Program-made: the position numbers and the translations under genes
Shown: positions 6,107-54,440 of the stretch, in pieces
How positions within the stretch are numbered: the stretch's first letter is position 1
How the letters are laid out: each line of letters begins with the position of its first letter
The notes under the pieces: model-generated
Database searches by the model: none
Seen by the model: only the letters and a program-made list of their open reading frames with translations
What the model was told of the DNA's origin: nothing
Origin: a virus
Lineage: Duplodnaviria > Caudoviricetes
DNA: 64,000 bases
Strand: one strand, 5' to 3'
Virus record (IMG/VR): IMGVR_UViG_3300002026_000008
Span: 24,828-88,827 of that record

Positions 6107-7215
6107 ATCTGCTCCAATGAATAAAATTCCTTTAAGAAATATTTCTTGAAATGACCAGCGTAATCCGGCTCTTGACCAGTATAGTGCTTGATCATCAATG
6201 CAAACAGTGGATGGTGACGTTGTGAAATTGCAAAATCTTTACGGCACAGATGCTTAAATGCCGATGTTGCAGCTTCTACAGTTTCACTCAATTCATTCAC
6301 ATGATTTACTACTCGCTGTTCAATTGCATTGATTCTGTCCATATTTGCGCCGATTTCCTTCATTGCTGTTTTCATATCATCGATAACTTCATCGATAACC
6401 ATTTCAGCAATAGCCCGCTCAGAACGGAAGACAACGGTGTGGTGTAAAGCCATATACCACTTTGTTTTCCATTTTGCCATTTGACCTGACATAAATTGGA
6501 TTACCCAGCCTTCAACGTGTTCACGTGTTTCCAGCGCGGCTTTCATCAAATCCTTATTAAAGACTGACAATTTAACAGGATCATATGCCTGAAATTCACA
6601 ACAAAAGTCAACCACTGGAATATTCAATTCATAATCAAAATCTTTTTCATATTCACCAGTGACATTGTCACGAACATTAAGCAGAGTAAGTTTGCGTTCT
6701 GCATAGGGCAGAACGATTCGGTGTTGTGGTGATGTGAATTCGTAAATTGTGGTGTATCCAAGTTCACACATCATACGCGCATAATCAGCAATTTGACGAT
6801 TTTCAGGCAGATGAATAAATTCTGTTGCAGCAATTGCAACATCACTTTCAAATGACTTTTTAGATTTGCATACTAGCTGACCATCAACGATAACAGGTGT
6901 GATCATTGATCCATCACGTTTATCCATTATGCGATAAACATCGTCCCAGGGCATCATATGTTCCTGAGTTTCTTCACGTTCATTGACATTGAAAAATTTA
7001 TGGAATGGGCGTGCGAGAATTTTACCATGACGATCAAATGTAATACCACGACATTCGCGTGCGAATTCTTTGTTTTCGCCATTGAAGGTATTTTCATTTG
7101 AAATCATATAACACACAACAGTACAACCATTAGGTTGTACCATTACACGGATTTCAGGTTTGTCTTGAATATGTGGAAGAAGATCATCGAGACAACTAAT
7201 ACGTGCAAACATCAT
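6103..7215 (-). CDS. T4 Rnl1-like RNA ligase
   Basis: ECRGITFD, PFHKFFNVNE, motif I KRDGSM, IYEFTSPQHRIV, EGWVI, KWKTKWY. Confidence 0.9.
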   Translation of the reverse strand: MMFARISCLDDLLPHIQDKPEIRVMVQPNGCTVVCYMISNENTFNGENKEFARECRGITFDRHGKILARPFHKFFNVNEREETQEHMMPWDDVYRIMDKRDGSMITPVIVDGQLVCKSKKSFESDVAIAATEFIHLPENRQIADYARMMCELGYTTIYEFTSPQHRIVLPYAERKLTLLNVRDNVTGEYEKDFDYELNIPVVDFCCEFQAYDPVKLSVFNKDLMKAALETREHVEGWVIQFMSGQMAKWKTKWYMALHHTVVFRSERAIAEMVIDEVIDDMKTAMKEIGANMDRINAIEQRVVNHVNELSETVEAATSAFKHLCRKDFAISQRHHPLFALMIKHYTGQEPDYAGHFKKYFLKEFYSLEQI

Positions 7216-7244
7216 ATATTCTCACATTGGTTGATAACAGATTC

Positions 7245-7274
7245 ATTATATCATCAATGCAAGAATAAGTAAAC
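7245..7274 (-). promoter_or_regulatory. Early sigma70-type promoter
   Basis: GTTTACT-17 nt-TATAAT upstream of RNA ligase; recurring motif. Confidence 0.75.
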
Positions 7275-7279
7275 ACTTA

Positions 7280-7453
7280 TTAGATAAGATTAAATCCTTT
7301 TACTAACATAAAAATGTCAAATATAAACTGAACAGCTAGAAGAGCATAAATCAACCCGAACCGATGATTATGCGTAGTATGAATATCGTGAATACACGCT
7401 AGTTTTTCTTCTACTTGTGTCACATTTACTATATCGTTGCTATAAGATTTCAT
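7280..7453 (-). CDS. Small membrane protein (57 aa, below ORF-track cut-off)
   Basis: GGAG then MKSYSNDIVNV...FGLIYALLAVQFIFDIFMLVKGFNLI; one hydrophobic segment. Confidence 0.55.
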   Translation of the reverse strand: MKSYSNDIVNVTQVEEKLACIHDIHTTHNHRFGLIYALLAVQFIFDIFMLVKGFNLI

Positions 7454-7464
7454 ATGGTTCTCCG

Positions 7465-8136
7465 TTATTTGGTGATAATTTTACCTTTGATTAATGTGAA
7501 TGGTGTTTTATGAGTTGTTATTTCATTCACCGTAATTTGTTTTTCCTGCTGTTTCTTTGCAGGTTTTTGATTCTTTTCAACTTCTGTAACAAGTGATTTA
7601 AAATCTAACTCTATTTTCTTTTGAATAATAGGAGCTTTGATTACTGGTGCAGTAACTTTTACACTTTCATCGATTTCTTTCTTAGTTGGTTTAATTTCAG
7701 TTTCAGTAAAATCGACAACCTTATCTTTCGGTTCTTCTATCTTAATCGGTTTCACATCAACTATTGGTGCAGGTTCAACTACTGGCTCCTTGACAACTGC
7801 TGGTTCAACAAATGTCTCATCTGAATGTGCTAATTCATCATACACCTGGCAATCGACCGTACCACTATCAGCAACTGTTACTTCACGTCGAATCACGGTA
7901 TGTAATTTACCAGCCAGGATAACATCAATAGTTAGTTGTACCTGACCGACATCGATAACATCTCTAACCGGTGTAACTAATGCAGACCATTCATTATTAC
8001 CAATTGATTTTGCAGTAAAGCATAATGCCGGGTCTTTGCCTAATACCACATTGACTACCGATGGAACAGCTGCTGTTCCATCGGTAGTCAATTTGAATTT
8101 CAGTTCAACAGTATCACCTAATGTAAAATTATTCAT
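7465..8136 (-). CDS. Hypothetical protein, beta-rich N-terminus, Pro/Lys/Glu-rich linker
   Basis: 223 aa ORF in virion-gene operon. Confidence 0.6.
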   Translation of the reverse strand: MNNFTLGDTVELKFKLTTDGTAAVPSVVNVVLGKDPALCFTAKSIGNNEWSALVTPVRDVIDVGQVQLTIDVILAGKLHTVIRREVTVADSGTVDCQVYDELAHSDETFVEPAVVKEPVVEPAPIVDVKPIKIEEPKDKVVDFTETEIKPTKKEIDESVKVTAPVIKAPIIQKKIELDFKSLVTEVEKNQKPAKKQQEKQITVNEITTHKTPFTLIKGKIITK

Positions 8137-8479
8137 ATTTTATCTCAAGCATTTGTAAATTTTCAATTGTTATAAATGGCGAAACATTGGCCATTGTTAT
8201 ATTTGTTGCATACACAATAGGCTCACCATCGTATGGCAAATTCTCTGCAGAATAATTGTATTCTGCTCCCATCAATTCTATCTTAATTTCAATAAACAGG
8301 TTTTCTGCTACTCTATCATCTACTAATTCATCACGTTCTACATATCGTCGCTGATTAACAATCGATGGAATAGACTGCGGTCGTTTTACCGTATCATAAG
8401 TTGTGCGAACAGGTGTAATGCTTCTACAACGTAGAGCATTAATCGTAAATGCATTAATTGAACACGCATTTATCGGCAT
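8129..8479 (-). CDS. Hypothetical protein
   Basis: 116 aa ORF coupled to neighbours. Confidence 0.55.
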   Translation of the reverse strand: MPINACSINAFTINALRCRSITPVRTTYDTVKRPQSIPSIVNQRRYVERDELVDDRVAENLFIEIKIELMGAEYNYSAENLPYDGEPIVYATNITMANVSPFITIENLQMLEIKYE

Positions 8480-22574: not shown

Positions 22575-23471
22575 TCATACGGCAACCGGTAATTTAATGA
22601 ATGGATGAGAAACATAACCAATTATATTAAAATCATCTATAGAATATCTATCAATGTCAGTATTGACAGTATTGATGATTAATTTGCAATCACATTCAAT
22701 AGGTGTTAATTGACATATATGTTTTGCTGCTTCGATATGATTGAGATAGATATGAGCATCGCCGTAATTTATCTTTAAATACCGAGGTTTTAAGTTTGTT
22801 GCACGAGCAATAAGATGTGTCAGTAATGCATATTGTGCTATATTAAATGGTAATCCTAACATAGTGTCTGATGATCTAATGTTAAGCATTAGATCAAGGT
22901 GACCGTCATTGGAAACATAGCATTGAAAATCCCGATGACACGGTGGTAATGCCATTTCTTCGAGATATGCAGGATTCCAGGCAGTTACAATCAATCGACG
23001 GTCGCGTGGACGTGTCTTAATACGGGTAATCAATTCAGCTAGTTGATCAATTTCGATGACAGTCAATGAAATATTCTCATGGTCTAAAGCTGTTCTATGA
23101 TACAGACTATTAGTAGGATTTCGTTTAGATAACGGTTTATTTTCTGGATTATTGATTACAAACTTTTTCCAATGACGCCATTGAACACCATAGATTGGGC
23201 CTACATCACCATTTTCTTGTGCCCAATCATTCCAAATGTTAACACCATGTTCTTTCAATTTGGTGATATTTCCAATGCCTTCAATGAAGAATAGCATTTC
23301 TTCAAAGGATGATTCCCATTTGGTCTTCTTAAGAGTTACCAATGGAAAACGTTCGCGCAAATCAAATTCTACCTGACCACCGAAAATGGACAGCGTGCCG
23401 ACACCAGTACGATCTTCACGCTTCTCGCCATATGTTAGAATCTTTTCAAGCAATTCGTAATACTGTTTCAT
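22575..23471 (-). CDS. thyA: Thymidylate synthase (dUMP type)
   Basis: DRTGVGT, GPIYGVQWR, MALPPCH, RSSDTMLGLPFN (Asn = dUMP), GDAHIYLNH; start MKQYY overlaps upstream stop. Confidence 0.96.
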   Translation of the reverse strand: MKQYYELLEKILTYGEKREDRTGVGTLSIFGGQVEFDLRERFPLVTLKKTKWESSFEEMLFFIEGIGNITKLKEHGVNIWNDWAQENGDVGPIYGVQWRHWKKFVINNPENKPLSKRNPTNSLYHRTALDHENISLTVIEIDQLAELITRIKTRPRDRRLIVTAWNPAYLEEMALPPCHRDFQCYVSNDGHLDLMLNIRSSDTMLGLPFNIAQYALLTHLIARATNLKPRYLKINYGDAHIYLNHIEAAKHICQLTPIECDCKLIINTVNTDIDRYSIDDFNIIGYVSHPFIKLPVAV

Positions 23472-23710
23472 TTTAGTTGACTCCAAATACTCTTAATGTG
23501 AAAAAATCTACCTAACGGTGATATTGCAATAGGTAAAGCTAAAACAACGCAATAAATCATTTGAAGACCCAGTAATATACTTGCATCGTTCTTAATGAAA
23601 AATACCTGAACAAAACCAGCAATTAAATAAACTAATGACACCCAAAACATCCAACAAGGGGCTGTTCTAGCAAACAGGGGTATGGTTTTTCCAAAAAGTT
23701 TAATTTTCAT
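23468..23710 (-). CDS. Small membrane protein
   Basis: Two hydrophobic segments. Confidence 0.55.
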   Translation of the reverse strand: MKIKLFGKTIPLFARTAPCWMFWVSLVYLIAGFVQVFFIKNDASILLGLQMIYCVVLALPIAISPLGRFFHIKSIWSQLK

Positions 23711-39981: not shown

Positions 39982-40329
39982 TTATTCAATAGGCACGTTA
40001 AAGTGTGGATGTGTTCCATTGAATCCACACTCTCTAAAAAACTGAATATAATTTTCCAGTAAGTGTTTTTGATCGGGCTTATCTTTAATAACTGCTCGAA
40101 GATCAATAATAAACATTGATGCCGCACGATATGCTTTTGCACCATCTAATTTATCATCGGTTGATTGCATAATAATCCCTGCATCATCTAATCGTTGCTG
40201 ACAATAGTAGTATGCTCCTTTTGCAATATCACCTTTCATCCATTCATCATGCGCCATACTGCAATTGAGGGATAACAACTCGAGAATCTTATTAACTTGT
40301 TCTCGTAAAGGCTGTAAATTATATTCCAT
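39982..40329 (-). CDS. Hypothetical protein
   Basis: Probable start MEYNLQ at 40329. Confidence 0.55.
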   Translation of the reverse strand: MEYNLQPLREQVNKILELLSLNCSMAHDEWMKGDIAKGAYYYCQQRLDDAGIIMQSTDDKLDGAKAYRAASMFIIDLRAVIKDKPDQKHLLENYIQFFRECGFNGTHPHFNVPIE

Positions 40330-41209
40330 TATTGTCCAATTCATTGATATGATTGATAATTTCAGTTGCAGTAAATGTTCTTTTAGGTTTTCCCAACTTA
40401 TCAAGCTGTTTCTTCACCTCGGTAATATTAAACAATTCTTTACGAATTTTTTCTAATTCAGCAGTATTGTTATAAGATCGAGTTGGAAATCTGGTTTCAA
40501 ACGCAGAAGCATAAATCATATTTTCTGCCATGTATTTAAGAATAAAAAGGAAACCGAATTCACCATTACTAGAATCATAGCATTTACCATACCACGTAAG
40601 CTCATGATATTTTGCTAAAATATCACTCATTCTTTTAATGTTAAGCATAAAAACCGATTGATCATGGTATCCTTCACCTTCAACATTAAATTCTATACCA
40701 TAACATTTGCAATTTTCATCTAAAATAACACCTAAATATGGGTTAATTTCTTTTGCTACCGGTAACACCATAGCTACAGGATCATACTGAGTTAATTCTT
40801 TAATGATTCCGTCATTATGGAATACAGCATCACCCCATGTAACAATAACGTTTTTATTAGATTTTGATTCTGACAATGACCGTCTTTTCAAACTGTCTAA
40901 TGATTCCATTACGGCATGACCAGAACCTAACCCTGTTGTAATGGGGTGAATAACGATTTTATCGAGATTCTCTGCAATACTAATTGCTTGATCATCTGGA
41001 TATTGATCAAACATTCTAGCAAGCGCATTTGCAAAAAGATCTTCATGTTTTTGATTAATTGTTATGATAATACGATCAAAATGATGACCTATTGTCATCA
41101 CTGTATTGAAAATGTTTGGAACACCATTGACCTCCGCCAATGGTTTGATTGTTCCATTTTCATCCGTGAAACGGCTGCCATTACCTGCTGCAACGATTAT
41201 TAAGTCCAT
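40319..41209 (-). CDS. GT-A nucleotidyltransferase (NTP_transferase; GlmU-N/LicC-like)
   Basis: AAGGAG then MDLIIVAAGNGSRF...KPLAEVNG; GLGSGHAV; VTWGD. Confidence 0.88.
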   Translation of the reverse strand: MDLIIVAAGNGSRFTDENGTIKPLAEVNGVPNIFNTVMTIGHHFDRIIITINQKHEDLFANALARMFDQYPDDQAISIAENLDKIVIHPITTGLGSGHAVMESLDSLKRRSLSESKSNKNVIVTWGDAVFHNDGIIKELTQYDPVAMVLPVAKEINPYLGVILDENCKCYGIEFNVEGEGYHDQSVFMLNIKRMSDILAKYHELTWYGKCYDSSNGEFGFLFILKYMAENMIYASAFETRFPTRSYNNTAELEKIRKELFNITEVKKQLDKLGKPKRTFTATEIINHINELDNNGI

Positions 41210-41219
41210 TGCAAACTCC

Positions 41220-43082
41220 TTAAAAAGTAATACTTGCAATAGCTAAACCATTAATTGTCGTTTCCAACAATGTCGCCAAGTAAATCAGTGTATCCCGTGG
41301 ATTATTTACAGGTAAAAACTTCAAACGATTATCAAATTTTTCTGCAATTTCCATAATGCATTTATCATTACCTTCAAATCCTTCATCACCGATATAAATG
41401 ACTTTGACAGGCAGTGTAGCAGAAATATTATTGAAATCTGAATCACAGTAATTTAAATGCTTATTTACGGCAAAAGTTTTATTACCGAATTTGCTGATTT
41501 CAATGGTTGTTTTACCGGCTGGCATAATCATTCCATCAAAACCATTTTCAACACACATAATTTGAAGTAGTTGAGTAATAGCTTCACGATATTCAGGAAT
41601 AATCGGTTTAATAGCAATGGAAGCATTAGCCTTATTTGTGACCTTAGACATATCTATTCCACAGTCTGCGATAATAGTCTTGACCAATTCAACTTCTTCA
41701 TTACTAAGCAATTGATCGTCTGCAACACTACCCTTCTTTACAAATCGCAATGATGGTTCGTAATTATCAGATAGTTTACGTGATGCAACATATTCATTTA
41801 GACCGCAGTCTGCATACACCGTTAGATTGTCAGCAAAGGGTTCAATTGAACGAATACTATTTCCGGTGATAATAGTCAAAAATGATCTAAACTTTAAACT
41901 TGCGCGAACAAGTAAACGCTTATTCATTTCTGATTCTTTTGCATATGTGTTGTTGCGACCTACTATAGTGTCATCATAATCTAACATTAGACCGTGAATG
42001 TTGTCAATATACTCTGAGAAATAATCTTTCATAATTGTAGAAATTAGAGATACACCGCGATGTGAACGCTCACGCTTTTCTGACAATTCAACGTTTATGT
42101 ATTTTTCAAATGTGACATCTCTTTCAATTTCACACATTAATGTAGCAGCATTGGTGTTAAATATTGTGGTGATTGACTGCATAGGTAACCAGCGATTGAG
42201 AAGATTCTGAATATCACTTGCACTATATCCAACGGTATCAAGATCATTCTCATTATTCATAATTAGATACTTAGATGCTTTTGATAACCTTAGTGCATCT
42301 TTAACACCTAGCATCATATATGTTGGAATAAGTGATGTCCACTGTGTACCTGCCGAAAAGATAACAACCTCGGCTCCCATAATTGCATTATGAGTGTCTG
42401 CATTTATTCCAGGTGGAGTAATCTTTTTACCGTGTGGGTCTGTAAAATACAGATCGGTTATGCGATCATCTCGATTATCCCATTCATCAATATCAACCTC
42501 ATCTGATAACACTACACCGGATGATGTCACTGCATTGATATATGCTGGCGTATCAGAAGCAATCAAAACGGAATCTTCAGAAATACCAAGATGCTTAGCC
42601 ATAATCTTGCCAGCAGCACTCAACGAATTACCATTAAGCCCGGCGATACCAGCATAAATCAGATTTGATATTGAGAAATCATCATAAGTGATAACACGTG
42701 ACATTGGTTGCGCAAAGAAATTCTCTGCTGCATCTTCAAATAATTTTACAGTACCAGGAGCAATTTCATCCTTATAATTATCTAAAAACTCAGCAAATAC
42801 TTTTTCAGCTTGATGATTATCTGCATCAAAACGGACATTCAGGAAATCATAAAGTTTTGTACTTTTTGGGTTAGTAAATTTGTGCTTAAGCATCTGATTT
42901 TTTCTCAAATCAGACGGCCCTAGCAATTGACCTTGATAGATTTGACGACACTGTCCTGTGCTTAGACCATTGTCCATAGCACAGATAACAACAGTAGTAT
43001 CTACTGTATCACCATATACTGCATTAATACCATTTTGGAGATTAACACTACCACGACCACCTGCAAAGATTACTAGTTTCAT
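41220..43082 (-). CDS. YvcK/GlmR/CofD-family domain fused to HAD-IIB (phosphomannomutase/phosphatase-like) domain
   Basis: N: KLVIFAGGRGS, DNGLSTG, GPSDLRK, IFSAGTQWTSLIP. C: LDYDDT (DxD), ITGNS, IYIGDEGFEGND. Confidence 0.8.
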   Translation of the reverse strand: MKLVIFAGGRGSVNLQNGINAVYGDTVDTTVVICAMDNGLSTGQCRQIYQGQLLGPSDLRKNQMLKHKFTNPKSTKLYDFLNVRFDADNHQAEKVFAEFLDNYKDEIAPGTVKLFEDAAENFFAQPMSRVITYDDFSISNLIYAGIAGLNGNSLSAAGKIMAKHLGISEDSVLIASDTPAYINAVTSSGVVLSDEVDIDEWDNRDDRITDLYFTDPHGKKITPPGINADTHNAIMGAEVVIFSAGTQWTSLIPTYMMLGVKDALRLSKASKYLIMNNENDLDTVGYSASDIQNLLNRWLPMQSITTIFNTNAATLMCEIERDVTFEKYINVELSEKRERSHRGVSLISTIMKDYFSEYIDNIHGLMLDYDDTIVGRNNTYAKESEMNKRLLVRASLKFRSFLTIITGNSIRSIEPFADNLTVYADCGLNEYVASRKLSDNYEPSLRFVKKGSVADDQLLSNEEVELVKTIIADCGIDMSKVTNKANASIAIKPIIPEYREAITQLLQIMCVENGFDGMIMPAGKTTIEISKFGNKTFAVNKHLNYCDSDFNNISATLPVKVIYIGDEGFEGNDKCIMEIAEKFDNRLKFLPVNNPRDTLIYLATLLETTINGLAIASITF

Positions 43083-43112
43083 TTGATTTCCTTTGTGAAT
43101 AACGGGGTAATG

Positions 43113-44264
43113 TTATTTATGGTCAGCAGAAAGTGTGATTACCGACACTATCGTTTCTACCAACATTTCGCAGTACATTTGTTTATCCCAGTCCAAAACA
43201 TTATAGCTACTATCGACAATTTCTTTACGTGCAACATTGTCATCTCTAACTGCACGAATACGATCAGCAACCTCTTGTCTGTTATTCACATAGAGAAAAT
43301 CTGCGAGTTCTTTATCCTTGCCATACATGCGCAATTTTGGATCCAATTCACTATCGATAAATGTCACACATCCGGCTAGAATAGATTCGTAACTACGTTG
43401 TGACATAATATCAAAAATGGGGTAATGCTCATCACCAATAACAACATGAGAAACCGCTTCTGCCATTTTATCAATCATTTTGTTATACGCTACTGCTGGA
43501 CTAAACACAGGAGGACGTAGTGAAGAAATCTTTTTAGGATTAAATTTTTCTTCTTCAATTTTACCAAACACTTCTACTTTGATATCTTCATCATGACCAA
43601 AATAGTAGTCAACCAATTTCTTTTCACGTTTACCACCACGCATAGTACCACCATATGAGAGGTCCCAAACAGGTTCGGTTAGTGCAAATGGTCTACGCTG
43701 CTTTAAAAGTGGAAAACGGTCAAATGGGTAATTGACAACTGTTCTTACCTTAACGGTATTTTTACCTTCATTCTGCACACTGAGAATTTTTGCAACATTG
43801 TAAGATTGACAGATCACATCAATATCAGTACGTGTGATATTGTACTTCGTGATATCCCACTTGGCACCCCAGTCTTTTCGTTCAACACTACCAGCAATCT
43901 GAGATAAACATAGAGCTGGATCACAGTACATGTAGATGACAGGACCAGGAAATGTTTGAATCATTTGGTAATTTAACATACCTACTGGGTCTTCTGCACC
44001 ACCGAAAAAGTTTTGATTACCATTAATGATAAGCAAAACATCGTTTACACTCATATTATCATGGTCATCTTCGATATTGTGAAATGTTAGGTATGCAGGT
44101 TGAACGTCCTTCTTTAAAACTTTTGTATAGACATGAACATCAGCACCACCTTGAGCTAATACATCACAAAGACTTCGTGCTTCACCTGCACCACCACTGG
44201 TGTCATTCGCATTGTATGCAATACGTGCACCAATTTTAATTACTGCAACTCTCAAGTTAGACAT
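43113..44264 (-). CDS. T4 DNA beta-glucosyltransferase-like glycosyltransferase
   Basis: Collinear with remembered T4 Bgt: LLIINGNQNFFGG vs LIVVNSSINFFGG; DLSYGGTMRGGKREKKL vs DVIYGGSFRSGQRESKM; LYVNNRQEVADRI vs FYVNNRAELIDRV. Confidence 0.88.
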   Translation of the reverse strand: MSNLRVAVIKIGARIAYNANDTSGGAGEARSLCDVLAQGGADVHVYTKVLKKDVQPAYLTFHNIEDDHDNMSVNDVLLIINGNQNFFGGAEDPVGMLNYQMIQTFPGPVIYMYCDPALCLSQIAGSVERKDWGAKWDITKYNITRTDIDVICQSYNVAKILSVQNEGKNTVKVRTVVNYPFDRFPLLKQRRPFALTEPVWDLSYGGTMRGGKREKKLVDYYFGHDEDIKVEVFGKIEEEKFNPKKISSLRPPVFSPAVAYNKMIDKMAEAVSHVVIGDEHYPIFDIMSQRSYESILAGCVTFIDSELDPKLRMYGKDKELADFLYVNNRQEVADRIRAVRDDNVARKEIVDSSYNVLDWDKQMYCEMLVETIVSVITLSADHK

Positions 44265-44341
44265 TGAAACTCCTAATCATTTCACTTTTTTCGAAAAAAG
44301 ATCGCCAAACTGCACCAAAGTGCCGGTATTACGGGATGATA

Positions 44342-44584
44342 TTAACTAGCTACACGATTTAAAACTTGATCTATATCTTTACCATCTGTTATTTCATTGA
44401 GTATGGCAACAATATCTTCTTGCCTTTTTTCAGCATCTATTCTAGTTTGTGATTTTGGAATTGATGCATCACCTTGTCTTAGACATACTTCTTGAATGAT
44501 GTAATGCGTAATTTCACTCGTCAACATCTTATATTCTTTGAGTAAAACTGCAACTTCAACTCCATACCCTCTTTTTGATCTCAT
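44342..44584 (-). CDS. Hypothetical protein
   Basis: 80 aa ORF. Confidence 0.45.
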   Translation of the reverse strand: MRSKRGYGVEVAVLLKEYKMLTSEITHYIIQEVCLRQGDASIPKSQTRIDAEKRQEDIVAILNEITDGKDIDQVLNRVAS

Positions 44585-44646
44585 AGCAACTCACTAATAG
44601 ATATAAATTGCATTATAACACAATTACACAGCAAAGTATATCATAT

Positions 44647-45519
44647 TTACAAAACATTTACATTGCTGAACCAACCGTTATATGAGGCTTCTGCTTTTTT
44701 AGCATCCTCAAGATTTTTAAACCAAAACTTCCATGGTGTTGACGTTCTTGAAAAGACAGTTTCTATCTTATCATCATCTAACAGCAATAGATATAAACTG
44801 TTTGTCTTAACTGAGTTTGTGAATAGCATTGGTCCAATAATAGATAGCAATCTTGCTGCATCTTCTCTATTTGCTGGTACTTTTAGACTCAGTTCATAAA
44901 TGAATTTATTTTTTGATGTCGCTTTATTGACTTGCTGCGCTCTTGCTATCGCTAAATTACCATCAGGAACATCAGCATTAATTGCAGAGCCAGCAGCTGT
45001 CATTGCATTTTCACCAATTACAACTGGCGCAATAAGCATAGTACCTGATCCGATAAATGCACCATCTTTAATGGTTGTTAGATTTTTATTTTTACCATCA
45101 TAGTTGCAAGTAACGGTCCCACATCCAAAATTGACATTTTTGCCGATATTTGCATCACCTATATAGGTTAGATGCTTTGCGTGGGTACCATCACCGATAT
45201 AACTTTTCTTTATTTCAACAAAATTACCTATTACTACATTGTCACCAATTGTGACATCATCCCTGGTGCGTCCATACGGTCCAATTACACAATGATCACC
45301 AATTTTGGTATTAGATAGATACGAAAATGGTAGAATTTCTGTGTTATCACCAATTAGAACATTTTCGATTACACAGTACGGACCGATAGTGACATTATCA
45401 CCAAAATGATTATCTTCACCTTTAATGATACATCCTATTCCAACACTGAGATTTTTACCTGTGGTGTAACTACCCTGAATATGGAATTTCACAGGTCTAG
45501 CAAAAATATCAACGTTCAT
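44647..45519 (-). CDS. Stand-alone GlmU C-terminal (LbH acetyltransferase) domain plus ~90 aa unknown extension
   Basis: Hexapeptide repeats; GNFVEIKK, KHLTYIGDA, GCGTVTCNYDGKNK, FIGSGTMLIAPV, AAGS, LAIARAQQ; no N-terminal uridylyltransferase domain. Confidence 0.9.
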   Translation of the reverse strand: MNVDIFARPVKFHIQGSYTTGKNLSVGIGCIIKGEDNHFGDNVTIGPYCVIENVLIGDNTEILPFSYLSNTKIGDHCVIGPYGRTRDDVTIGDNVVIGNFVEIKKSYIGDGTHAKHLTYIGDANIGKNVNFGCGTVTCNYDGKNKNLTTIKDGAFIGSGTMLIAPVVIGENAMTAAGSAINADVPDGNLAIARAQQVNKATSKNKFIYELSLKVPANREDAARLLSIIGPMLFTNSVKTNSLYLLLLDDDKIETVFSRTSTPWKFWFKNLEDAKKAEASYNGWFSNVNVL

Positions 45520-46128: not shown

Positions 46129-47085
46129 TTAAAAGTCAAGCAGATTTTTCTTTTCAGACACAACTTTGTCGCCAGTGCGAAGATCAACATAATACTTAGC
46201 GAACTTTTCCTTGAACTTTTCGCGAAGCTTAGGTTTGATTTCATCAGGACGTTTTGCTACAATGGTATAGCACATTGAGATCATTGGGTTGACAAGAGCC
46301 ATAACAGCAGAAGCAAAGCCAGAAGATACTGAGCGCATTTCTTCATAAAACGCCATTTGTGTATCATCAAATCGTGGCTTGAGGTACCGTGCTTTACCCA
46401 ACCAGCCTTTAATATCGATAGGCGCAAAACCTGCATCATCGAGTTCTTTCATCATTTCATAATGAGCAAACTCATAGACATGGCTACCTTCCCAGATGAA
46501 TTCTTCACCTTCGTGCTTCTTCGGGTTTGGAGAAGATACAACGATTGTTCCACCAGGAGCAAGACATTTTTGAGCATCAGCAAGAAGTTGCTGAACAACC
46601 GGAATACCTACGTGCTCAAGAACTTCTTGCATAATGATCAAATCAAATTCTTGATTGAGTTCGGTAATCGGCCGCCTCATTGCATCCCAATGGTGAACAG
46701 TACACTTACTAACACCTTTTTGAACAGCATAAAGCTCTTGTGCTTCCTTGACAATGTTTTCTTGTACTTCAAGACCAACATAATCAACACGTGGACGACC
46801 AGGATTTGCAAAGCTTGTCATCCAGAACGTATAAAAGGTTGCACGACTGCAACCTACATCCAAAATACGAACTGGCTTTTCAATATCAGTGCGCAAATCT
46901 GTAACAACCTGTGCAACTACTGCATAACGAAGAAGAGCAGCAAGGTCCCAACCGCTAAACCAACTGAACTTGCCTAGTGCTTCTTTTGTGAACAAATTCA
47001 GAGAACTGTCATCGTGAGTGAAAGTGTAATCGTCTGCATCAATTTGTTCTTGGCAGGCATGTACTCGTTGGGTATTATCAGTCAT
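46129..47085 (-). CDS. Class I SAM-dependent methyltransferase (small-molecule/sugar type)
   Basis: RILDVGC, YVGLEV, FDLIIMQEVLEHV, LAPGGTIVVSSPN, HVYEF; no NPPY/DPPY or PCQ DNA-MTase motif. Confidence 0.88.
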   Translation of the reverse strand: MTDNTQRVHACQEQIDADDYTFTHDDSSLNLFTKEALGKFSWFSGWDLAALLRYAVVAQVVTDLRTDIEKPVRILDVGCSRATFYTFWMTSFANPGRPRVDYVGLEVQENIVKEAQELYAVQKGVSKCTVHHWDAMRRPITELNQEFDLIIMQEVLEHVGIPVVQQLLADAQKCLAPGGTIVVSSPNPKKHEGEEFIWEGSHVYEFAHYEMMKELDDAGFAPIDIKGWLGKARYLKPRFDDTQMAFYEEMRSVSSGFASAVMALVNPMISMCYTIVAKRPDEIKPKLREKFKEKFAKYYVDLRTGDKVVSEKKNLLDF

Positions 47086-47291
47086 CTCGGTTCCTTTATA
47101 GTGAATGCTTCGTCAAGTGCAGCTTTTATTTCGGTGAATGTATCTAATGTGTAATCTGCGAGTATGCTAATACCATACTCAGTATTAATACGGGCTTTAA
47201 AATCATCTGCTTTACGTAATCCTTCTTCTATACCTGCACGATACAATGCACGTAAATATTCATCTTGAGTTACTTCGATTTGCTCAGACAT
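47082..47291 (-). CDS. Small hypothetical protein
   Basis: 69 aa coupled ORF. Confidence 0.5.
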   Translation of the reverse strand: MSEQIEVTQDEYLRALYRAGIEEGLRKADDFKARINTEYGISILADYTLDTFTEIKAALDEAFTIKEPR

Positions 47292-47830
47292 TATGATGTT
47301 GCCTCTTCATAGATACGGTCATAATGCTTGTAGCAATTATTCACCTGATCATATACATCAATAATTCTTTTATCAGGAAATGCAGATCGTGCATAGGCTT
47401 CAATAAATCGATCTTGTTCTTCTTCTTTTCGATTAAAATCAAAACTTAATCCATCATCCTTCAAAATACTGAAATTAGAGGTTGTCAATAGAATCAATCT
47501 AGTATCTGACATTTCTCTTGCAGAATATTCACACTCTAATTCGAAAATATACTCACCTGAATAGTCCCGATAAAGTGGTGCGTAGACAAATTCGCCCAAA
47601 TGAAAACGGTTAAAGATAGTACGTGCACTAGAGTTAAGAATATCAAACCCAGTACCAAATGAACTACGTTGATATTCATAAAGAGAACCATCATATTGAG
47701 CTAATGGTATCGGTTTTGAATAATGAACTACTTGATAGAAGCCATTATAGTTTTGAATATTGCTAATAAGGGAATCTTTTCCAAGTCTATCTATCCCTTC
47801 AAAAATCCAATGTTTAATTTCTTGCGTCAT
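47291..47830 (-). CDS. dNMP (thymidylate-like) kinase
   Basis: WIFEGIDRLGKDSLI P-loop; FNRFHLGEFVYAPLYR. Confidence 0.85.
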   Translation of the reverse strand: MTQEIKHWIFEGIDRLGKDSLISNIQNYNGFYQVVHYSKPIPLAQYDGSLYEYQRSSFGTGFDILNSSARTIFNRFHLGEFVYAPLYRDYSGEYIFELECEYSAREMSDTRLILLTTSNFSILKDDGLSFDFNRKEEEQDRFIEAYARSAFPDKRIIDVYDQVNNCYKHYDRIYEEATS

Positions 47831-50142: not shown

Positions 50143-50559
50143 ATGAAATCATATGGCAATTTAGAATTAGCTGAAGGTTCAGATATCGTCAATATGACGG
50201 TTGCAACTGGTACAACATTACCGGCTACAACTGCTAATATCGCTGAACTATTCTATAAAACGGGAACTGCAGCTGGACTTTATGTCTATAACGGAAGTTC
50301 TTGGACTAATTTATCATTAGCCGCTTCAGGTGGCAATACTTTGAGTTATGCTTATCAACAAAGCACTGCCTCTACTACATGGAATATTAACCATAATTTA
50401 AACACTACAAATATTACGTATAGCTTTATGGTTTATGTAAGCAGCACGTTAACACCAATTATGCCATCAGCTTTAAGCATAATTGATGCTAACAATATCA
50501 CGGTAACCTTTTCTGTTGCTTATACTGGAACTGCTACCATTGTTGGATCACTTGCATAA
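50143..50559 (+). CDS. Small virion/tail-fibre-associated protein on opposite strand
   Basis: LFYKT..GLYVYNGSSW and WNINHNLNT module shared with 58767..61793; ATAAATA at 50105-50111. Confidence 0.65.
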   Translation: MKSYGNLELAEGSDIVNMTVATGTTLPATTANIAELFYKTGTAAGLYVYNGSSWTNLSLAASGGNTLSYAYQQSTASTTWNINHNLNTTNITYSFMVYVSSTLTPIMPSALSIIDANNITVTFSVAYTGTATIVGSLA

Positions 50560-51462
50560 CCGTTCTCTTGGTGCACAACCGAAACAGACATCAATAAGAT
50601 TCTTCCAATAATTTGGAAGACGATAATACTGAAGTGGTTGTCTAATGTCAGCTGGCGAACAATTGTAATCTTCTCGCCATACTTTCTCATACGCTATTAA
50701 CTGTTGACGAATAATATCGTTATAAACCATTTCTTGCATAATGATCTCATTTGCCATCGGGTCTTCATGGATGCATTTTTTAGCCATGTCATAATGTGTA
50801 TCATACAAGTGCATTGAATGTGATTCATGGATGTATTCACCGAGAGTTAGATCACTAAACAATTCAATCTGCTTAAGTTCACATAACATCATTTCTTGAA
50901 GCATTGTGAATTGAAAAACATCATTGCAAAAACCTAGGATGATATCATTCGATCTCATTGTAACGATCAATACCAACTTGCTTTCACGAATAAACCACTG
51001 AAGATTCAAAGTACATGGTACATCTTTAGTTGATCGCGTATAGTCATATGGTAAATTGATATGCATCATTGCTTGACGGGTATCTCTATCTGCAACTAAT
51101 GCTCGCTTTACTTTTTCCCATTGATTATATGGAATAAGTGTGGCTGGGGCATAACCTAGCAACCGATAACCGTAATTTGAATTAACAGAACCATCATCAG
51201 CGGCAATTTGTTTCCAAAACGGTGCATACCTGGCAATTGTTGCAGACTGAGGATCACCCGACATATACCAAAACAATTCTGCTAATAGATACCGAAACTT
51301 CAAATCACGACTAGGCAATGTGACAATACGATCTCTCGGATTGCTGATACGAAGTTGATACCCTAACAGTTCCTTACATTTTAATCCACGTGGTGAGATA
51401 TCATATCCCATTTCCATAATCTGGTCCACACACTCCACGAATTCGATATTTAATTCTGACAT
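50548..51462 (-). CDS. Thymidylate-synthase-family dCMP hydroxymethylase/hydroxylase
   Basis: SNYGYR, DTRQA, KDVPCT, MRSNDIILGFCND: Asp at the specificity position, as in T4 gp42 (GFRND), not the Asn of ThyA. Confidence 0.85.
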   Translation of the reverse strand: MSELNIEFVECVDQIMEMGYDISPRGLKCKELLGYQLRISNPRDRIVTLPSRDLKFRYLLAELFWYMSGDPQSATIARYAPFWKQIAADDGSVNSNYGYRLLGYAPATLIPYNQWEKVKRALVADRDTRQAMMHINLPYDYTRSTKDVPCTLNLQWFIRESKLVLIVTMRSNDIILGFCNDVFQFTMLQEMMLCELKQIELFSDLTLGEYIHESHSMHLYDTHYDMAKKCIHEDPMANEIIMQEMVYNDIIRQQLIAYEKVWREDYNCSPADIRQPLQYYRLPNYWKNLIDVCFGCAPRERLCK

Positions 51463-52499: not shown

Positions 52500-54440
52500 T
52501 TATACTTTGAAAATGCTCACGGTTTCTTTAAGCTTCACTGATAATGATTGCAAAGTGTTTGCGCCATTGTACACCTCATTAACACCGGCACTATTTTCTT
52601 CATTCAAATTTGCGAGCATTTCAACACTTGCGGCTATCTGTTCACTAGAAGAACTCTGTTCTTTAAGAGCATTTGAAATTTCACTAATAGTGTCAATCAC
52701 TTTAACTGTTTCACCGTATATTTTCTGCATGCTTTCGCCTGCAATACTTGCATGTGATACACAATTATTAACTTGACTGGCACTATCCTTGATACCAACA
52801 ACGGCAGCTGCCGTTGATTTTTGAATTGCTTCGATCATAACTGCAATTTCTTGAGTTGATATAGCTGTTCTTTCAGCTAATTTGCGTACCTCATCAGCCA
52901 CAACTGCAAATCCACGTCCTTGATCTCCAGCTCTAGCAGCCTCAATTGCAGCATTTAGTGCTAATAGCTTTGTCTGACCTGCGATATCCTTAATCACGTT
53001 GACTATTTCAGAAATCTGTTTCGAGCTATTAGCTAATTCTTCAATCATATCAGCAGCTTTATTTACTGCAATTGAACTAGTTTTCAATTCGGTAACCGTG
53101 TTATTGACCGCTTCCGTGCATTCTAACGACATTTGTCCCGTCCGTTCTGCTAATGTGCTAGAGTCTTGAGCATTATCGGTTACCTGTTTAATGCTTACCG
53201 TTATTTCTTCTAAGGTTGCGGCAATAGATGATGTAGAATCATTTTGTTGTTCAACACTGACAGATACTCGTTTAGCAGTATCAACTAATCCTATAGAAGA
53301 CGTTTCCAAGGTGTCAGCACTTTCATTTATGTTTTTGACTATTGTGCGTAGTCCTTCTTGCATACTACTTAATGCACATATAACACTACCATCTTTAGCA
53401 CCATCTAAATTAACAGGTGTACGTAAATCACCATTAGCAATAACTGTTGCTATGTCAACAGCTTTTTTAGGTTCGCCACCAAGAGGAACCAAAACAAGCC
53501 TGTTAAGCATAACTATCACAAGACTTATGAGTAAAAAGCAAGCAGTAATACCAGTAATTACTATCAGCATTATTCTACCACGCATCATATTATTTGCTTC
53601 TTCTTTGGAATATGCAGCATGAACAGTAAAGCCCCAGGCGGCAAACTCTTTTTCGGATACTTTCCAATTCTCAGCATCTTTTAAATGTGCAGCAATAGCT
53701 TCTTCATTTATGTGTGAAGAATGAAATCGTATTTTTCCTTTATTGTCTGTAATAGAAATAAATCCTTGTGTCAACACTTTGCTGTTATCAACAATAGATT
53801 TCAAATTATCAACATTAACCTTATATCCAACATGCCAAATACCGATGGTATTATTAGCTGCATTTTTAATTGGGGTGTATCCTGTTAAAAATGGGTTACC
53901 GAGAATATCAACCATACCGAAATATTGTTGGTCGCTATTAATAGCAGCATATGCTTTGCCAGTCTTATCCAATACTGTACCAACTGCGCGTGTTCCATCA
54001 TCTTTCATCACATTTGTGGATATTCTAACATAATCATCACCCTGCTTTGTGAAAACGGTAGATGTGCCACCAAGAAGATTTTTGATATTATCAACAAGTT
54101 TGAAATTATTTGCGATAGCAATTGAACCTAATACTAGATCGTTGACAGATTTATCACCAACCTTAACTTCAGGACCCGTAACTGCTTCTCCTAATTGTTC
54201 ACCCTGATTTATTAACACCTTCATGGATGACTGTGTTTGATCCATTATCAACTTATCTGTCACTTCCAACATATTAACTATTTTCGTTAACTGTTTCTCT
54301 TGCTCTATGTTTAGCTCATTTTTAATCCGAGTATTCTCAAATAATGTGAATGCTATTGATCCGCTTAGAATAAACACAGTAATGAACAGTGATATGGATG
54401 TTATAAATCTAAATTTTAAACTCTTGTTATTAAAAAACAT
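52500..54440 (-). CDS. Methyl-accepting chemotaxis protein (TM-Cache-TM-HAMP-MA)
   Basis: Two TM helices; Cache_3/Cache_2-like sensor ([36 protein letters not shown]); [34 protein letters not shown]. Confidence 0.96.

Follow-up and report, generated by a model that had tools for sequence, protein, structure and literature searches.

Why would a phage that carries a homologue of the T4 β-glucosyltransferase surround it with genes of its own for making a sugar donor? The question is raised by a stretch of 64,000 bp (hereafter the window) corresponding to bases 24828-88827 of the 88.8-kb IMG/VR virus contig IMGVR_UViG_3300002026_000008. The contig was estimated by CheckV to be ~25% complete and therefore belongs to a jumbo phage with a genome of roughly 350 kb. 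A densely packed block, on the minus strand throughout, was found to encode in order of transcription a thymidylate synthase (TS) homologue, a DinG-type helicase, a kinase-like protein, an S-adenosylmethionine (SAM) methyltransferase, two small open reading frames (ORFs), a left-handed beta-helix (LbH) acetyltransferase, an ORF of 80 amino acids (aa), the T4 β-glucosyltransferase homologue (Bgt), a fusion of a YvcK/GlmR-type domain with a HAD-IIB domain, and a stand-alone nucleotidyltransferase (NT) (Table 1). Bgt, the fusion and the NT are referred to below as the cassette. On balance, we think it probable that these genes form a self-contained sugar-donor line of the phage which serves the DNA glycosyltransferase, and that the donor in this lineage is an N-acetyl amino sugar.

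The acetyltransferase tells most about this line, since the site that it conserves requires a hexosamine-1-phosphate as intermediate. Residues 6-203 of the LbH protein matched the GlmU model TIGR01173 only at model positions 251-447, with 239 bits, which falls below the equivalog cut-off of 366.85 bits for full-length GlmU. The gene is thus not a bifunctional GlmU with both domains in one chain and corresponds to the C-terminal half only. The domain aligned with residues 256-446 of E. coli GlmU (HMMER, E 1e-49) and matched Pfam Hexapep at 5e-27, as a left-handed beta-helix hexapeptide protein does. Nine of nine E. coli GlmU residues (R333, E349, K351, H363, Y366, N377, N386, K392 and S405), which we take to be the glucosamine-1-phosphate (GlcN-1-P), acetyl-CoA and catalytic residues of the GlmU structures, were kept in the LbH protein, where their counterparts counted on the HMMER alignment are R86, E102, K104, H116, Y119, N130, N139, K145 and S158 in the same order. 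GlmU A380 was replaced by Cys. Judged by these residues the gene keeps an intact GlcN-1-P acetyltransferase site, and its presence suggests an N-acetyl amino sugar, not plain glucose, as the donor.

The sequence-only reading of this DNA had already described the gene as the acetyltransferase half of GlmU with an unrelated tail, and this description held. The tail (residues 204-290, ~87 aa) had no match in Pfam, NCBIfam or PDB. The closest homologues of the LbH protein, both ~60% identical, were found on contigs L044 (197 aa, no tail) and L043 (409 aa, with an unrelated tail of 210 aa); the tail is therefore a lineage-specific appendage. Among the cassette loci compared, the LbH gene was restricted to the window phage and these two closest relatives. 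After the two phage contigs, the nearest relatives in a collection of 5.8 billion proteins were full-length bacterial GlmU proteins with 47-54% identity. From these relationships the LbH domain is a rare and separate acquisition, in which the C-terminal domain of a bacterial GlmU was captured in one lineage. The 210-aa C-terminal extension of the L043 homologue (7211-8440) ends in a Cys-rich, zinc-ribbon-like segment.

The NT likely starts at the ATG at 41209, although a longer ORF starting with TTG extends to 41239, and it carries a C-terminal extension of ~37 aa that is peculiar to this phage. It showed only a weak NTP_transf_3 match in Pfam (2e-6) and scored 14.8 bits (E 0.0098) against TIGR01173. 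The profile of its family (A2, 24 members) had its best match with the N-terminal domain of GlmU (2.5e-16), ahead of IspD and TarI. A Foldseek search with the AlphaFold2 (AF2) model of the NT (pLDDT 89) also placed GlmU first, with a TM-score by query of 0.70, followed by UGPase, RmlA, HddC and MurU. Identity with GlmU was only 15-18%. R13, K22 and W125-G126-D127 of the NT correspond to R18, K25 and Y103-G104-D105 of GlmU; R13, K22 and D127 are invariant in the family, so that the G-x-G-(T/S)-R...K signature and the catalytic Asp are present, and the position of GlmU N169 is an invariant Asp. Profile and predicted fold thus support a GlmU-N-like sugar-1-phosphate nucleotidyltransferase. The idea that a single GlmU had been split into parts, although suggestive as to function, does not hold for the history of the genes, since the NT occurs in about 30 loci without LbH and shares only 15-18% identity with GlmU, while the LbH domain (~50%) is a separate and rare acquisition. 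As judged from these comparisons, the NT is an old component of the cassette with a history separate from that of the LbH domain.

The HAD-IIB domain of the fusion was found to carry HAD motifs I-IV (DxDxT, T/S, K, GDxxxxGND), of which D368-Y-D370-D-T372, K535 and G565-D566...G571-N572-D573 are all invariant in 22-28 homologues. Its profile (A4) matched phosphomannomutases (PMMs) and the Lactococcus α-phosphoglucomutase (α-PGM) 4bnd at 6e-18 to 1e-7, against only 8e-5 for the best phosphatase. With the AF2 model (pLDDT 92), Foldseek ranks 1-6 were taken by α-PGM (4bnd, Lactococcus) and eukaryotic PMMs. Three arginines of human PMM2 (R123, R134 and R141) are presumably the cap arginines that hold the second phosphate. 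The position of R123 is basic (Arg or Lys, the latter in this phage), that of R141 is Arg in most family members, and R134 falls in a stretch of four residues missing from this domain. The profile matches and the predicted fold support a domain of phosphomannomutase/α-phosphoglucomutase type.

The N-terminal domain of the fusion (residues 4-312) matched Pfam CofD, the CofD/YvcK family, at 5.5e-23 and 82 bits. Profile A3 of this domain matched the YvcK structures 2ppv, 2hzb, 2o2z, 2q7x and 2p0y at 6e-32 to 3e-22, and matched CofD 3c3d with an E value of only 3e-3 over the N-terminal 35 residues. On these profile matches the domain is of the YvcK/GlmR type (UPF0052) and not a true CofD. A true CofD/F420 enzyme was ruled out by the marginal match to 3c3d and by the absence of F420 genes from every locus examined. 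The HMMER alignments to YvcK stopped at chain residues 240 (2hzb) and 286 (2ppv), short of R301, with that of 2ppv spanning the Y265 region; Y265 and R301 are residues which we take to form the UDP-GlcNAc site of B. subtilis GlmR. Across the homologues 21 residues are invariant, among them D37, which is the first Asp of the GlmR catalytic pair; the second position is Asn38, as in the staphylococcal YvcK 2ppv. The pair is D40-D41 in L. monocytogenes and D38-D39 in B. subtilis, and the Asp matching D37 is the residue mutated in catalytically dead GlmR (PMC10128056, PMC13046274). The activity reported for GlmR is uridylyl transfer (PMC10128056), and GlmR has also been described as a regulator and helper of UDP-GlcNAc synthesis (PMC7525490, PMC13046274). 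The phage domain may serve as an accessory nucleotidyltransferase like GlmR, as a subunit for channelling or regulation, or as a factor that activates the GlmS of the host.

Overall, the domain matches are strong homology signals by their scores and not chance. The sequence-only reading had named a stand-alone pyrophosphorylase-fold enzyme and a YvcK/GlmR plus HAD-IIB fusion with PMM-like motifs, and had proposed mutase, acetyltransferase and nucleotidyltransferase steps from them; profiles A2, A3 and A4, the predicted folds and the kept or invariant residues back these predicted identities.

The glycosyltransferase itself matched phrog_7922 over its full length (9.5e-49) and T4 b-gt in a tblastn search (7e-31 over residues 2-358) with an identity of ~25%. 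Residues E22, D100, G188, R191, R195, Y261, R269 and E272 of T4 BGT were all kept in the window Bgt; of these we take D100 to be the catalytic base and R191, R195, R269 and E272 to bind UDP. One of 29 Bgt homologues has Gln at the E272 position. Residue 353 of the window Bgt, the equivalent of T4 Q327, is Ser in the three phages (3/3) that carry LbH, whereas Gln is present in T4 BGT and in 26/26 other cassette Bgt homologues.

A probable acceptor base was indicated by the TS homologue, whose best PDB matches were the CMP hydroxymethylase MilA (2e-26) and T4 gp42 (2.5e-17). It has Asp at the equivalent of ThyA N177, the cytosine type as in T4 gp42, and Asp at the equivalent of ThyA D169, both within the motif M-R-S-N-D-I-I-L-G-F-C-N-D. 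In 5-hydroxy-dCMP synthases of the RB69 gp48/DLP3 gp80 type, the D169 position is Asn (PMC13326640). Since the TS homologue keeps Asp at 169, by this rule it is predicted to be a hydroxymethylase making 5-hydroxymethylcytosine (hmC) and not a 5-hydroxy-dCMP synthase. A 5-hydroxycytosine pathway was ruled out, as the TS homologue is without D169N.

The phage carries two genes of the TS family, one an orthodox ThyA that scores 318 bits and the other the divergent gene of hydroxymethylase type with 96 bits. The same pairing is found in the Ralstonia jumbo phage RsoM2USA (ORF473 and ORF10).

The cassette was found to be widespread. A word-based search returned 165 full-length homologues of the fusion with 30-71% identity, several of them on contigs of 150-360 kb, and an exhaustive profile search returned 545 clusters at 50% identity (E <= 1e-30). 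Among the best 150 of the 545 clusters, most are of the length of the fusion (550-640 aa), and ESM Atlas clusters of the family are 81-100% viral. The YvcK-HAD fusion had been thought unusual; these searches show the opposite, namely a large family, for the most part viral, in which this fusion is the prevailing architecture and has simply gone unannotated. In 32 distinct fusion loci, the NT was present in 30, nearly always immediately downstream of the fusion, and Bgt in 29, nearly always just upstream, giving the order Bgt, fusion, NT, mostly on one strand. The same loci carried the kinase (20/32), the TS homologue (20/32), the helicase (14/32) and the methyltransferase (6/32), and most cassette loci had no sugar-tailoring gene.

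The core cassette, again in the order Bgt, fusion, NT, was also identified in RsoM2USA, where the fusion is gp1 and Bgt is gp2. Both are labelled "hypothetical" in GenBank; the annotation table of the RsoM2USA paper lists ORF2 by its beta-glucosyl-transferase BLAST match, and a term search of that paper found no mention of CofD or DNA modification. Contig L003 (JAWBPO010000001.1, 219 kb), labelled as a Ca. Nitrosotenuis metagenome-assembled genome (MAG), carries the TS homologue, DinG helicase, kinase, Bgt, fusion and NT, and seems to be phage DNA that was placed in an archaeal MAG during binning. Further coupling of the parts was seen in single proteins, namely YvcK-(HAD)-NT triple fusions of 715-802 aa (P0311, P0315, P0316, P0317 and P0366) and a GT2-YvcK protein of 1007 aa. 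A structurally matching CofD + NTP_transf_3 cluster of 773 aa was placed by ESM Atlas in Nucleocytoviricota, and giant eukaryotic viruses may therefore carry the cassette. The parts of the cassette are thus tied to Bgt by conserved synteny and domain fusions, and the earlier proposal that these genes feed the Bgt homologue is backed by the 32 loci, RsoM2USA and the fusions.

Outside viruses, NT and YvcK-like families were found adjacent or fused, regularly followed by GT2, in cellular MAGs of Bdellovibrionales, Acidobacteriota, Patescibacteria, Woese- and Nanoarchaeota. Single proteins of ~950-1150 aa with the arrangement (HAD)-NT-CofD/YvcK-like-GT2 (L099 4522-7968, L073 5119-8007 and L094 2633-5524) come from MAGs of Nanoarchaeota, Bdellovibrionales and Patescibacteria; one MAG protein of 1148 aa is HAD-NT-CofD-like-GT2, and NT-YvcK-GT2 single proteins also occur. 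In a Lachnospiraceae MAG contig of 288 kb (L062 1-13167), an NT and YvcK-PMM pair without Bgt lies in a surface-polysaccharide-type locus together with Bac_transf, a radical-SAM activase, GT8, a glycyl-radical (PFL-like) enzyme, a HAD protein and LicD. In another bacterial MAG (locus L067), unfused YvcK-like, PMM-like, NT and GT2 genes have a GlmM-like gene and a stand-alone C-terminal domain of GlmU as neighbours; a search of that MAG turned up no full-length GlmU. Many of its ~1 Mb relatives (G006-G013, G018, G019 and G029-G031) have the stand-alone GlmU C-domain only; no full-length GlmU was found in the searched assemblies of many of these small-genome relatives, which suggests a naturally split GlmU in this bacterial group. 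Replacement of GlmU by the cassette in bacteria was considered and rejected, since relatives have stand-alone GlmU C-domains without the cassette NT. As such C-domains are common without the cassette NT, there is no displacement signal and the adjacency in L067 is weak evidence.

From the domain homologies observed in the window, we infer every chemical step of the proposed line. The PMM-type domain would convert a hexose(amine)-6-phosphate to the 1-phosphate. In this lineage the LbH enzyme would then N-acetylate the hexosamine-1-phosphate (HexN-1-P) to N-acetylhexosamine-1-phosphate (HexNAc-1-P), and the NT would join the sugar-1-phosphate with an NTP to an NDP-sugar, most likely UDP-HexNAc. 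The Bgt homologue would finally move the sugar onto hmC of the phage DNA. The YvcK/GlmR-type domain would join the mutase and the NT as a third, obligatory partner. In the relatives without the acetyltransferase, which are the majority, the cassette probably supplies a non-acetylated hexose donor.

Several observations weigh against this line. The donor pocket of Bgt showed no obvious remodelling in the three LbH-carrying phages, with only 7 clade-specific substitutions, the Gln-to-Ser change at residue 353 among them, as far as a comparison of sequences can tell. In the NT family a near-invariant Ile aligns with GlmU Q76, which we take to be the uracil-reading residue, and E154, presumably GlcNAc-binding in GlmU, is not conserved; nucleotide and sugar are therefore uncertain, and the earlier suggestion of a non-uridine nucleotide has some basis in the Ile at position 76. 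Genes for glmS, NAD-epimerase and GT1 were sought in the 88.8-kb fragment (~25% of the phage genome) and none was found. The presence of the cassette without Bgt in bacterial polysaccharide loci means that it is not DNA-specific. Finally, the NT and the GlmR-like domain look redundant, so that one step or more must have been given a wrong or incomplete assignment.

This redundancy leaves room for the YvcK-like domain to act in regulation or channelling, and also for a logic like that of CofC and CofD, under which the redundancy of two nucleotidyltransferases would disappear. Here the NT would make an NDP-X, and the YvcK-like domain would transfer phospho-X or a sugar-1-phosphate with release of NMP to a hydroxyl of the glucosylated base or hmC, Bgt having added the first sugar from host UDP-glucose and the HAD domain preparing or trimming the phosphorylated intermediate. 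The decoration would then be linked through a phosphodiester. The fusion N-domain does belong to Pfam CofD, and CofC, the partner of CofD, shares the nucleotidyltransferase fold of the NT, as is generally known of F420 biosynthesis. The NT and YvcK-like genes lie side by side or are fused in phages as well as in bacteria and archaea, which is what one expects of a donor-making enzyme coupled to its transferase, and the Lachnospiraceae pair lies beside the LicD phosphotransferase-type gene in a polysaccharide cluster. However, the domain is far nearer to YvcK/GlmR (6e-32) than to CofD (3e-3), and the PMM-like HAD fits a mutase acting before the NT better than a trimming phosphatase. We know of no phospho-sugar transferase of the YvcK/CofD-type family. 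In addition, uridylyl transfer is the only activity reported for GlmR (PMC10128056), and we regard this explanation as unlikely.

We hold it to be quite unlikely that the cassette simply enlarges the ordinary host donor pool (UDP-glucose or, in this lineage, UDP-GlcNAc) to allow full glucosylation of a genome of ~350 kb, with glucosyl-hmC as the adduct; the YvcK/GlmR-like domain and the acetyltransferase might also, or instead, redirect host cell-wall precursor metabolism. Such a boost of supply would agree with the fully kept T4-type residues of Bgt, with the common hexose phosphates on which PMM-type mutases and GlmU-like NTs work, and with the role of GlmR as regulator or helper in UDP-GlcNAc synthesis (PMC7525490, PMC13046274), and it fits most loci, which are without a sugar-tailoring gene. 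It leaves unexplained the retained acetyltransferase, which has survived in three diverged phages with 60% identity and an intact set of active-site residues, and a methyltransferase recurs inside the cassette as an accessory gene. A target other than DNA is very improbable; the cassette and the Bgt-like enzyme would in that case glycosylate, for example, a protein of the virion, a polymer of the host envelope or some small molecule. The same cassette does partner GT2 in cellular polysaccharide-type loci without DNA-modification genes, but in the phages it is paired with a T4 BGT homologue of full length that has kept Asp100 and the arginines for UDP binding and that is embedded with the dCMP-hydroxymethylase-type TS homologue, the nucleotide kinase and the DNA helicase in 14-20 of the 32 loci. 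Returning to the N-acetylhexosamine line, its fullest form would have this phage lineage decorate hmC with an all-phage-made N-acetylhexosamine and the YvcK/GlmR-type domain serve as a general, catalytically required partner of the NT in phages, giant viruses, bacteria and DPANN archaea, or even as a sugar-1-phosphate transferase that yields a sugar linked by a phosphodiester; this form is possible, though doubtful.

Compared with known systems, the locus resembles the hmC glucosylation of T4 (gp42, the gp1 deoxynucleoside monophosphate (dNMP) kinase and β-glucosyltransferase) in its hydroxymethylase-type TS homologue, kinase-like gene and full-length Bgt. T4 draws its UDP-glucose from the host, whereas Bgt here (identity ~25%) is flanked by mutase-type, nucleotidyltransferase, YvcK-type and acetyltransferase genes of the phage. 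Phages RB69, DLP3 and HY126 (AfhE/AfhF) encode a UDP-arabinose route for arabinosyl-5-hydroxycytosine with an isomerase, a kinase-NT fusion and a HAD phosphatase (PMC13326640). This route and the cassette have in common a single locus with a TS homologue, a kinase, one or more DNA glycosyltransferases and an NDP-sugar route including HAD and nucleotidyltransferase enzymes. They differ in that the locus described here combines a fusion of YvcK with a PMM-type HAD, a GlmU-N-like NT, a GlmU-C acetyltransferase and a T4 BGT-like transferase, and in that the TS homologue here is predicted to make hmC and not 5-hydroxycytosine. With the bacterial UDP-GlcNAc pathway (GlmS, GlmM, GlmU and GlmR/YvcK) the phage shares a true GlmU C-domain, a GlmU-N-like NT and a domain of the YvcK/GlmR family that keeps the first Asp of the catalytic pair. 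In contrast to that pathway, the mutase is of the HAD-IIB PMM type instead of a GlmM-type α-D-phosphohexomutase and is fused to YvcK, the two halves of GlmU are encoded apart and differ in their history, Q76 is missing from the NT, which has only 15-18% identity with GlmU, and no glmS was found in the fragment. The CofC/CofD pair of F420 synthesis (guanylyltransferase and 2-phospho-L-lactate transferase) likewise couples a nucleotidyltransferase-fold enzyme genetically to a Pfam CofD-family protein, but the CofD match here is marginal (3e-3), F420 genes are absent, and the partners are sugar enzymes and glycosyltransferases.

A literature search found no paper tying YvcK/CofD-family proteins to phage DNA modification or describing a YvcK-HAD fusion, and N-acetylhexosamine on hmC was not found as a DNA adduct in the literature searched. 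Phages that encode an NDP-sugar route next to TS homologues and DNA glycosyltransferases are already known (PMC13326640); the enzymes of the cassette are others. New in this window are the GlmU-C acetyltransferase, an indication of an N-acetylhexosamine donor, and the separate origin of the GlmU-like halves.

Table 1. Position of the cassette, its domains and associated genes in the window
Feature	Position (bp)	Strand	Evidence
Stand-alone NT gene, GlmU-N-like sugar-1-phosphate nucleotidyltransferase (supported), 296 aa	40319..41209	-	Pfam, family profile, AF2/Foldseek
YvcK-HAD fusion gene, 620 aa	41220-43082	-	Pfam, profiles, motifs
Phosphomannomutase-type HAD-IIB domain (supported), fusion residues 356-620 (stop codon counted)	41220..42017	-	Profile A4, AF2/Foldseek, motifs
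YvcK/GlmR-type domain, fusion residues 1-352	42027..43082	-	Pfam CofD, profile A3 against YvcK structures
T4 β-glucosyltransferase homologue (Bgt; DNA glycosyltransferase)	43113..44264	-	phrog_7922, tblastn to T4 b-gt
Small conserved ORF between the LbH and Bgt genes, 80 aa	44342..44584	-	L043 homologue 60% identical in the same place; weak phrog_4535 match
LbH gene, 290 aa	44647-45519	-	TIGR01173 (partial), E. coli GlmU alignment
Lineage-specific C-terminal tail of the LbH protein, residues 204-290	44647..44910	-	No detectable relatives
GlmU C-terminal LbH domain, residues 1-203, predicted hexosamine-1-phosphate N-acetyltransferase	44911..45519	-	TIGR01173, E. coli GlmU
SAM-dependent methyltransferase, accessory cassette gene in some lineages	46129..47085	-	Pfam Methyltransf_31/12/23/25/11
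P-loop nucleotide kinase-like gene	47291..47830	-	Weak phrog_761 thymidylate kinase match
Divergent TS homologue, predicted dCMP hydroxymethylase type	50548..51462	-	PDB matches MilA and T4 gp42
Second TS gene, orthodox ThyA	22575-23486	-	318 bits

Among the side genes, the kinase-like gene is likely a kinase for the modified dNMP. Homologues of the methyltransferase sit between Bgt and the fusion in four loci (L004, L006, L018 and L031) and are also present in L043 and L044; no solved relative of it was found by sequence. A complete methyl-accepting chemotaxis protein of 646 aa (Cache_3-Cache_2 sensor and MCPsignal) was identified at 52500-54440 (minus strand), directly downstream of a run of leucine-rich-repeat-like paralogues. 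The region had no megablast match with cultured phages. A scan for sigma-70 promoters showed no enrichment over shuffled sequences, and the number of terminator-like sites exceeded that in the shuffles only slightly (9 against 6.1 +/- 2.2), so that operon boundaries could not be drawn.

The sugars on phage DNA decide which restriction, CRISPR and glycosylase defences are escaped. The known cases use host UDP-glucose or phage-made UDP-arabinose, and the cassette would be a third, widespread solution for making the donor, found in hundreds of clusters mostly from large uncultured phages. The acetyltransferase of the window gives a concrete prediction on the sugar, namely that a hexosamine-1-phosphate is an intermediate and that hmC would therefore carry HexNAc. 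That YvcK/GlmR-type domains are repeatedly fused to mutases, nucleotidyltransferases and glycosyltransferases also bears on the role of bacterial GlmR, which is still argued to be either a GlmS regulator or an accessory uridyltransferase. If N-acetylhexosamine decoration with the YvcK-type domain as partner of the NT, or as a sugar-1-phosphate transferase, is true, the long-debated YvcK/GlmR family would gain a defined biochemical role.

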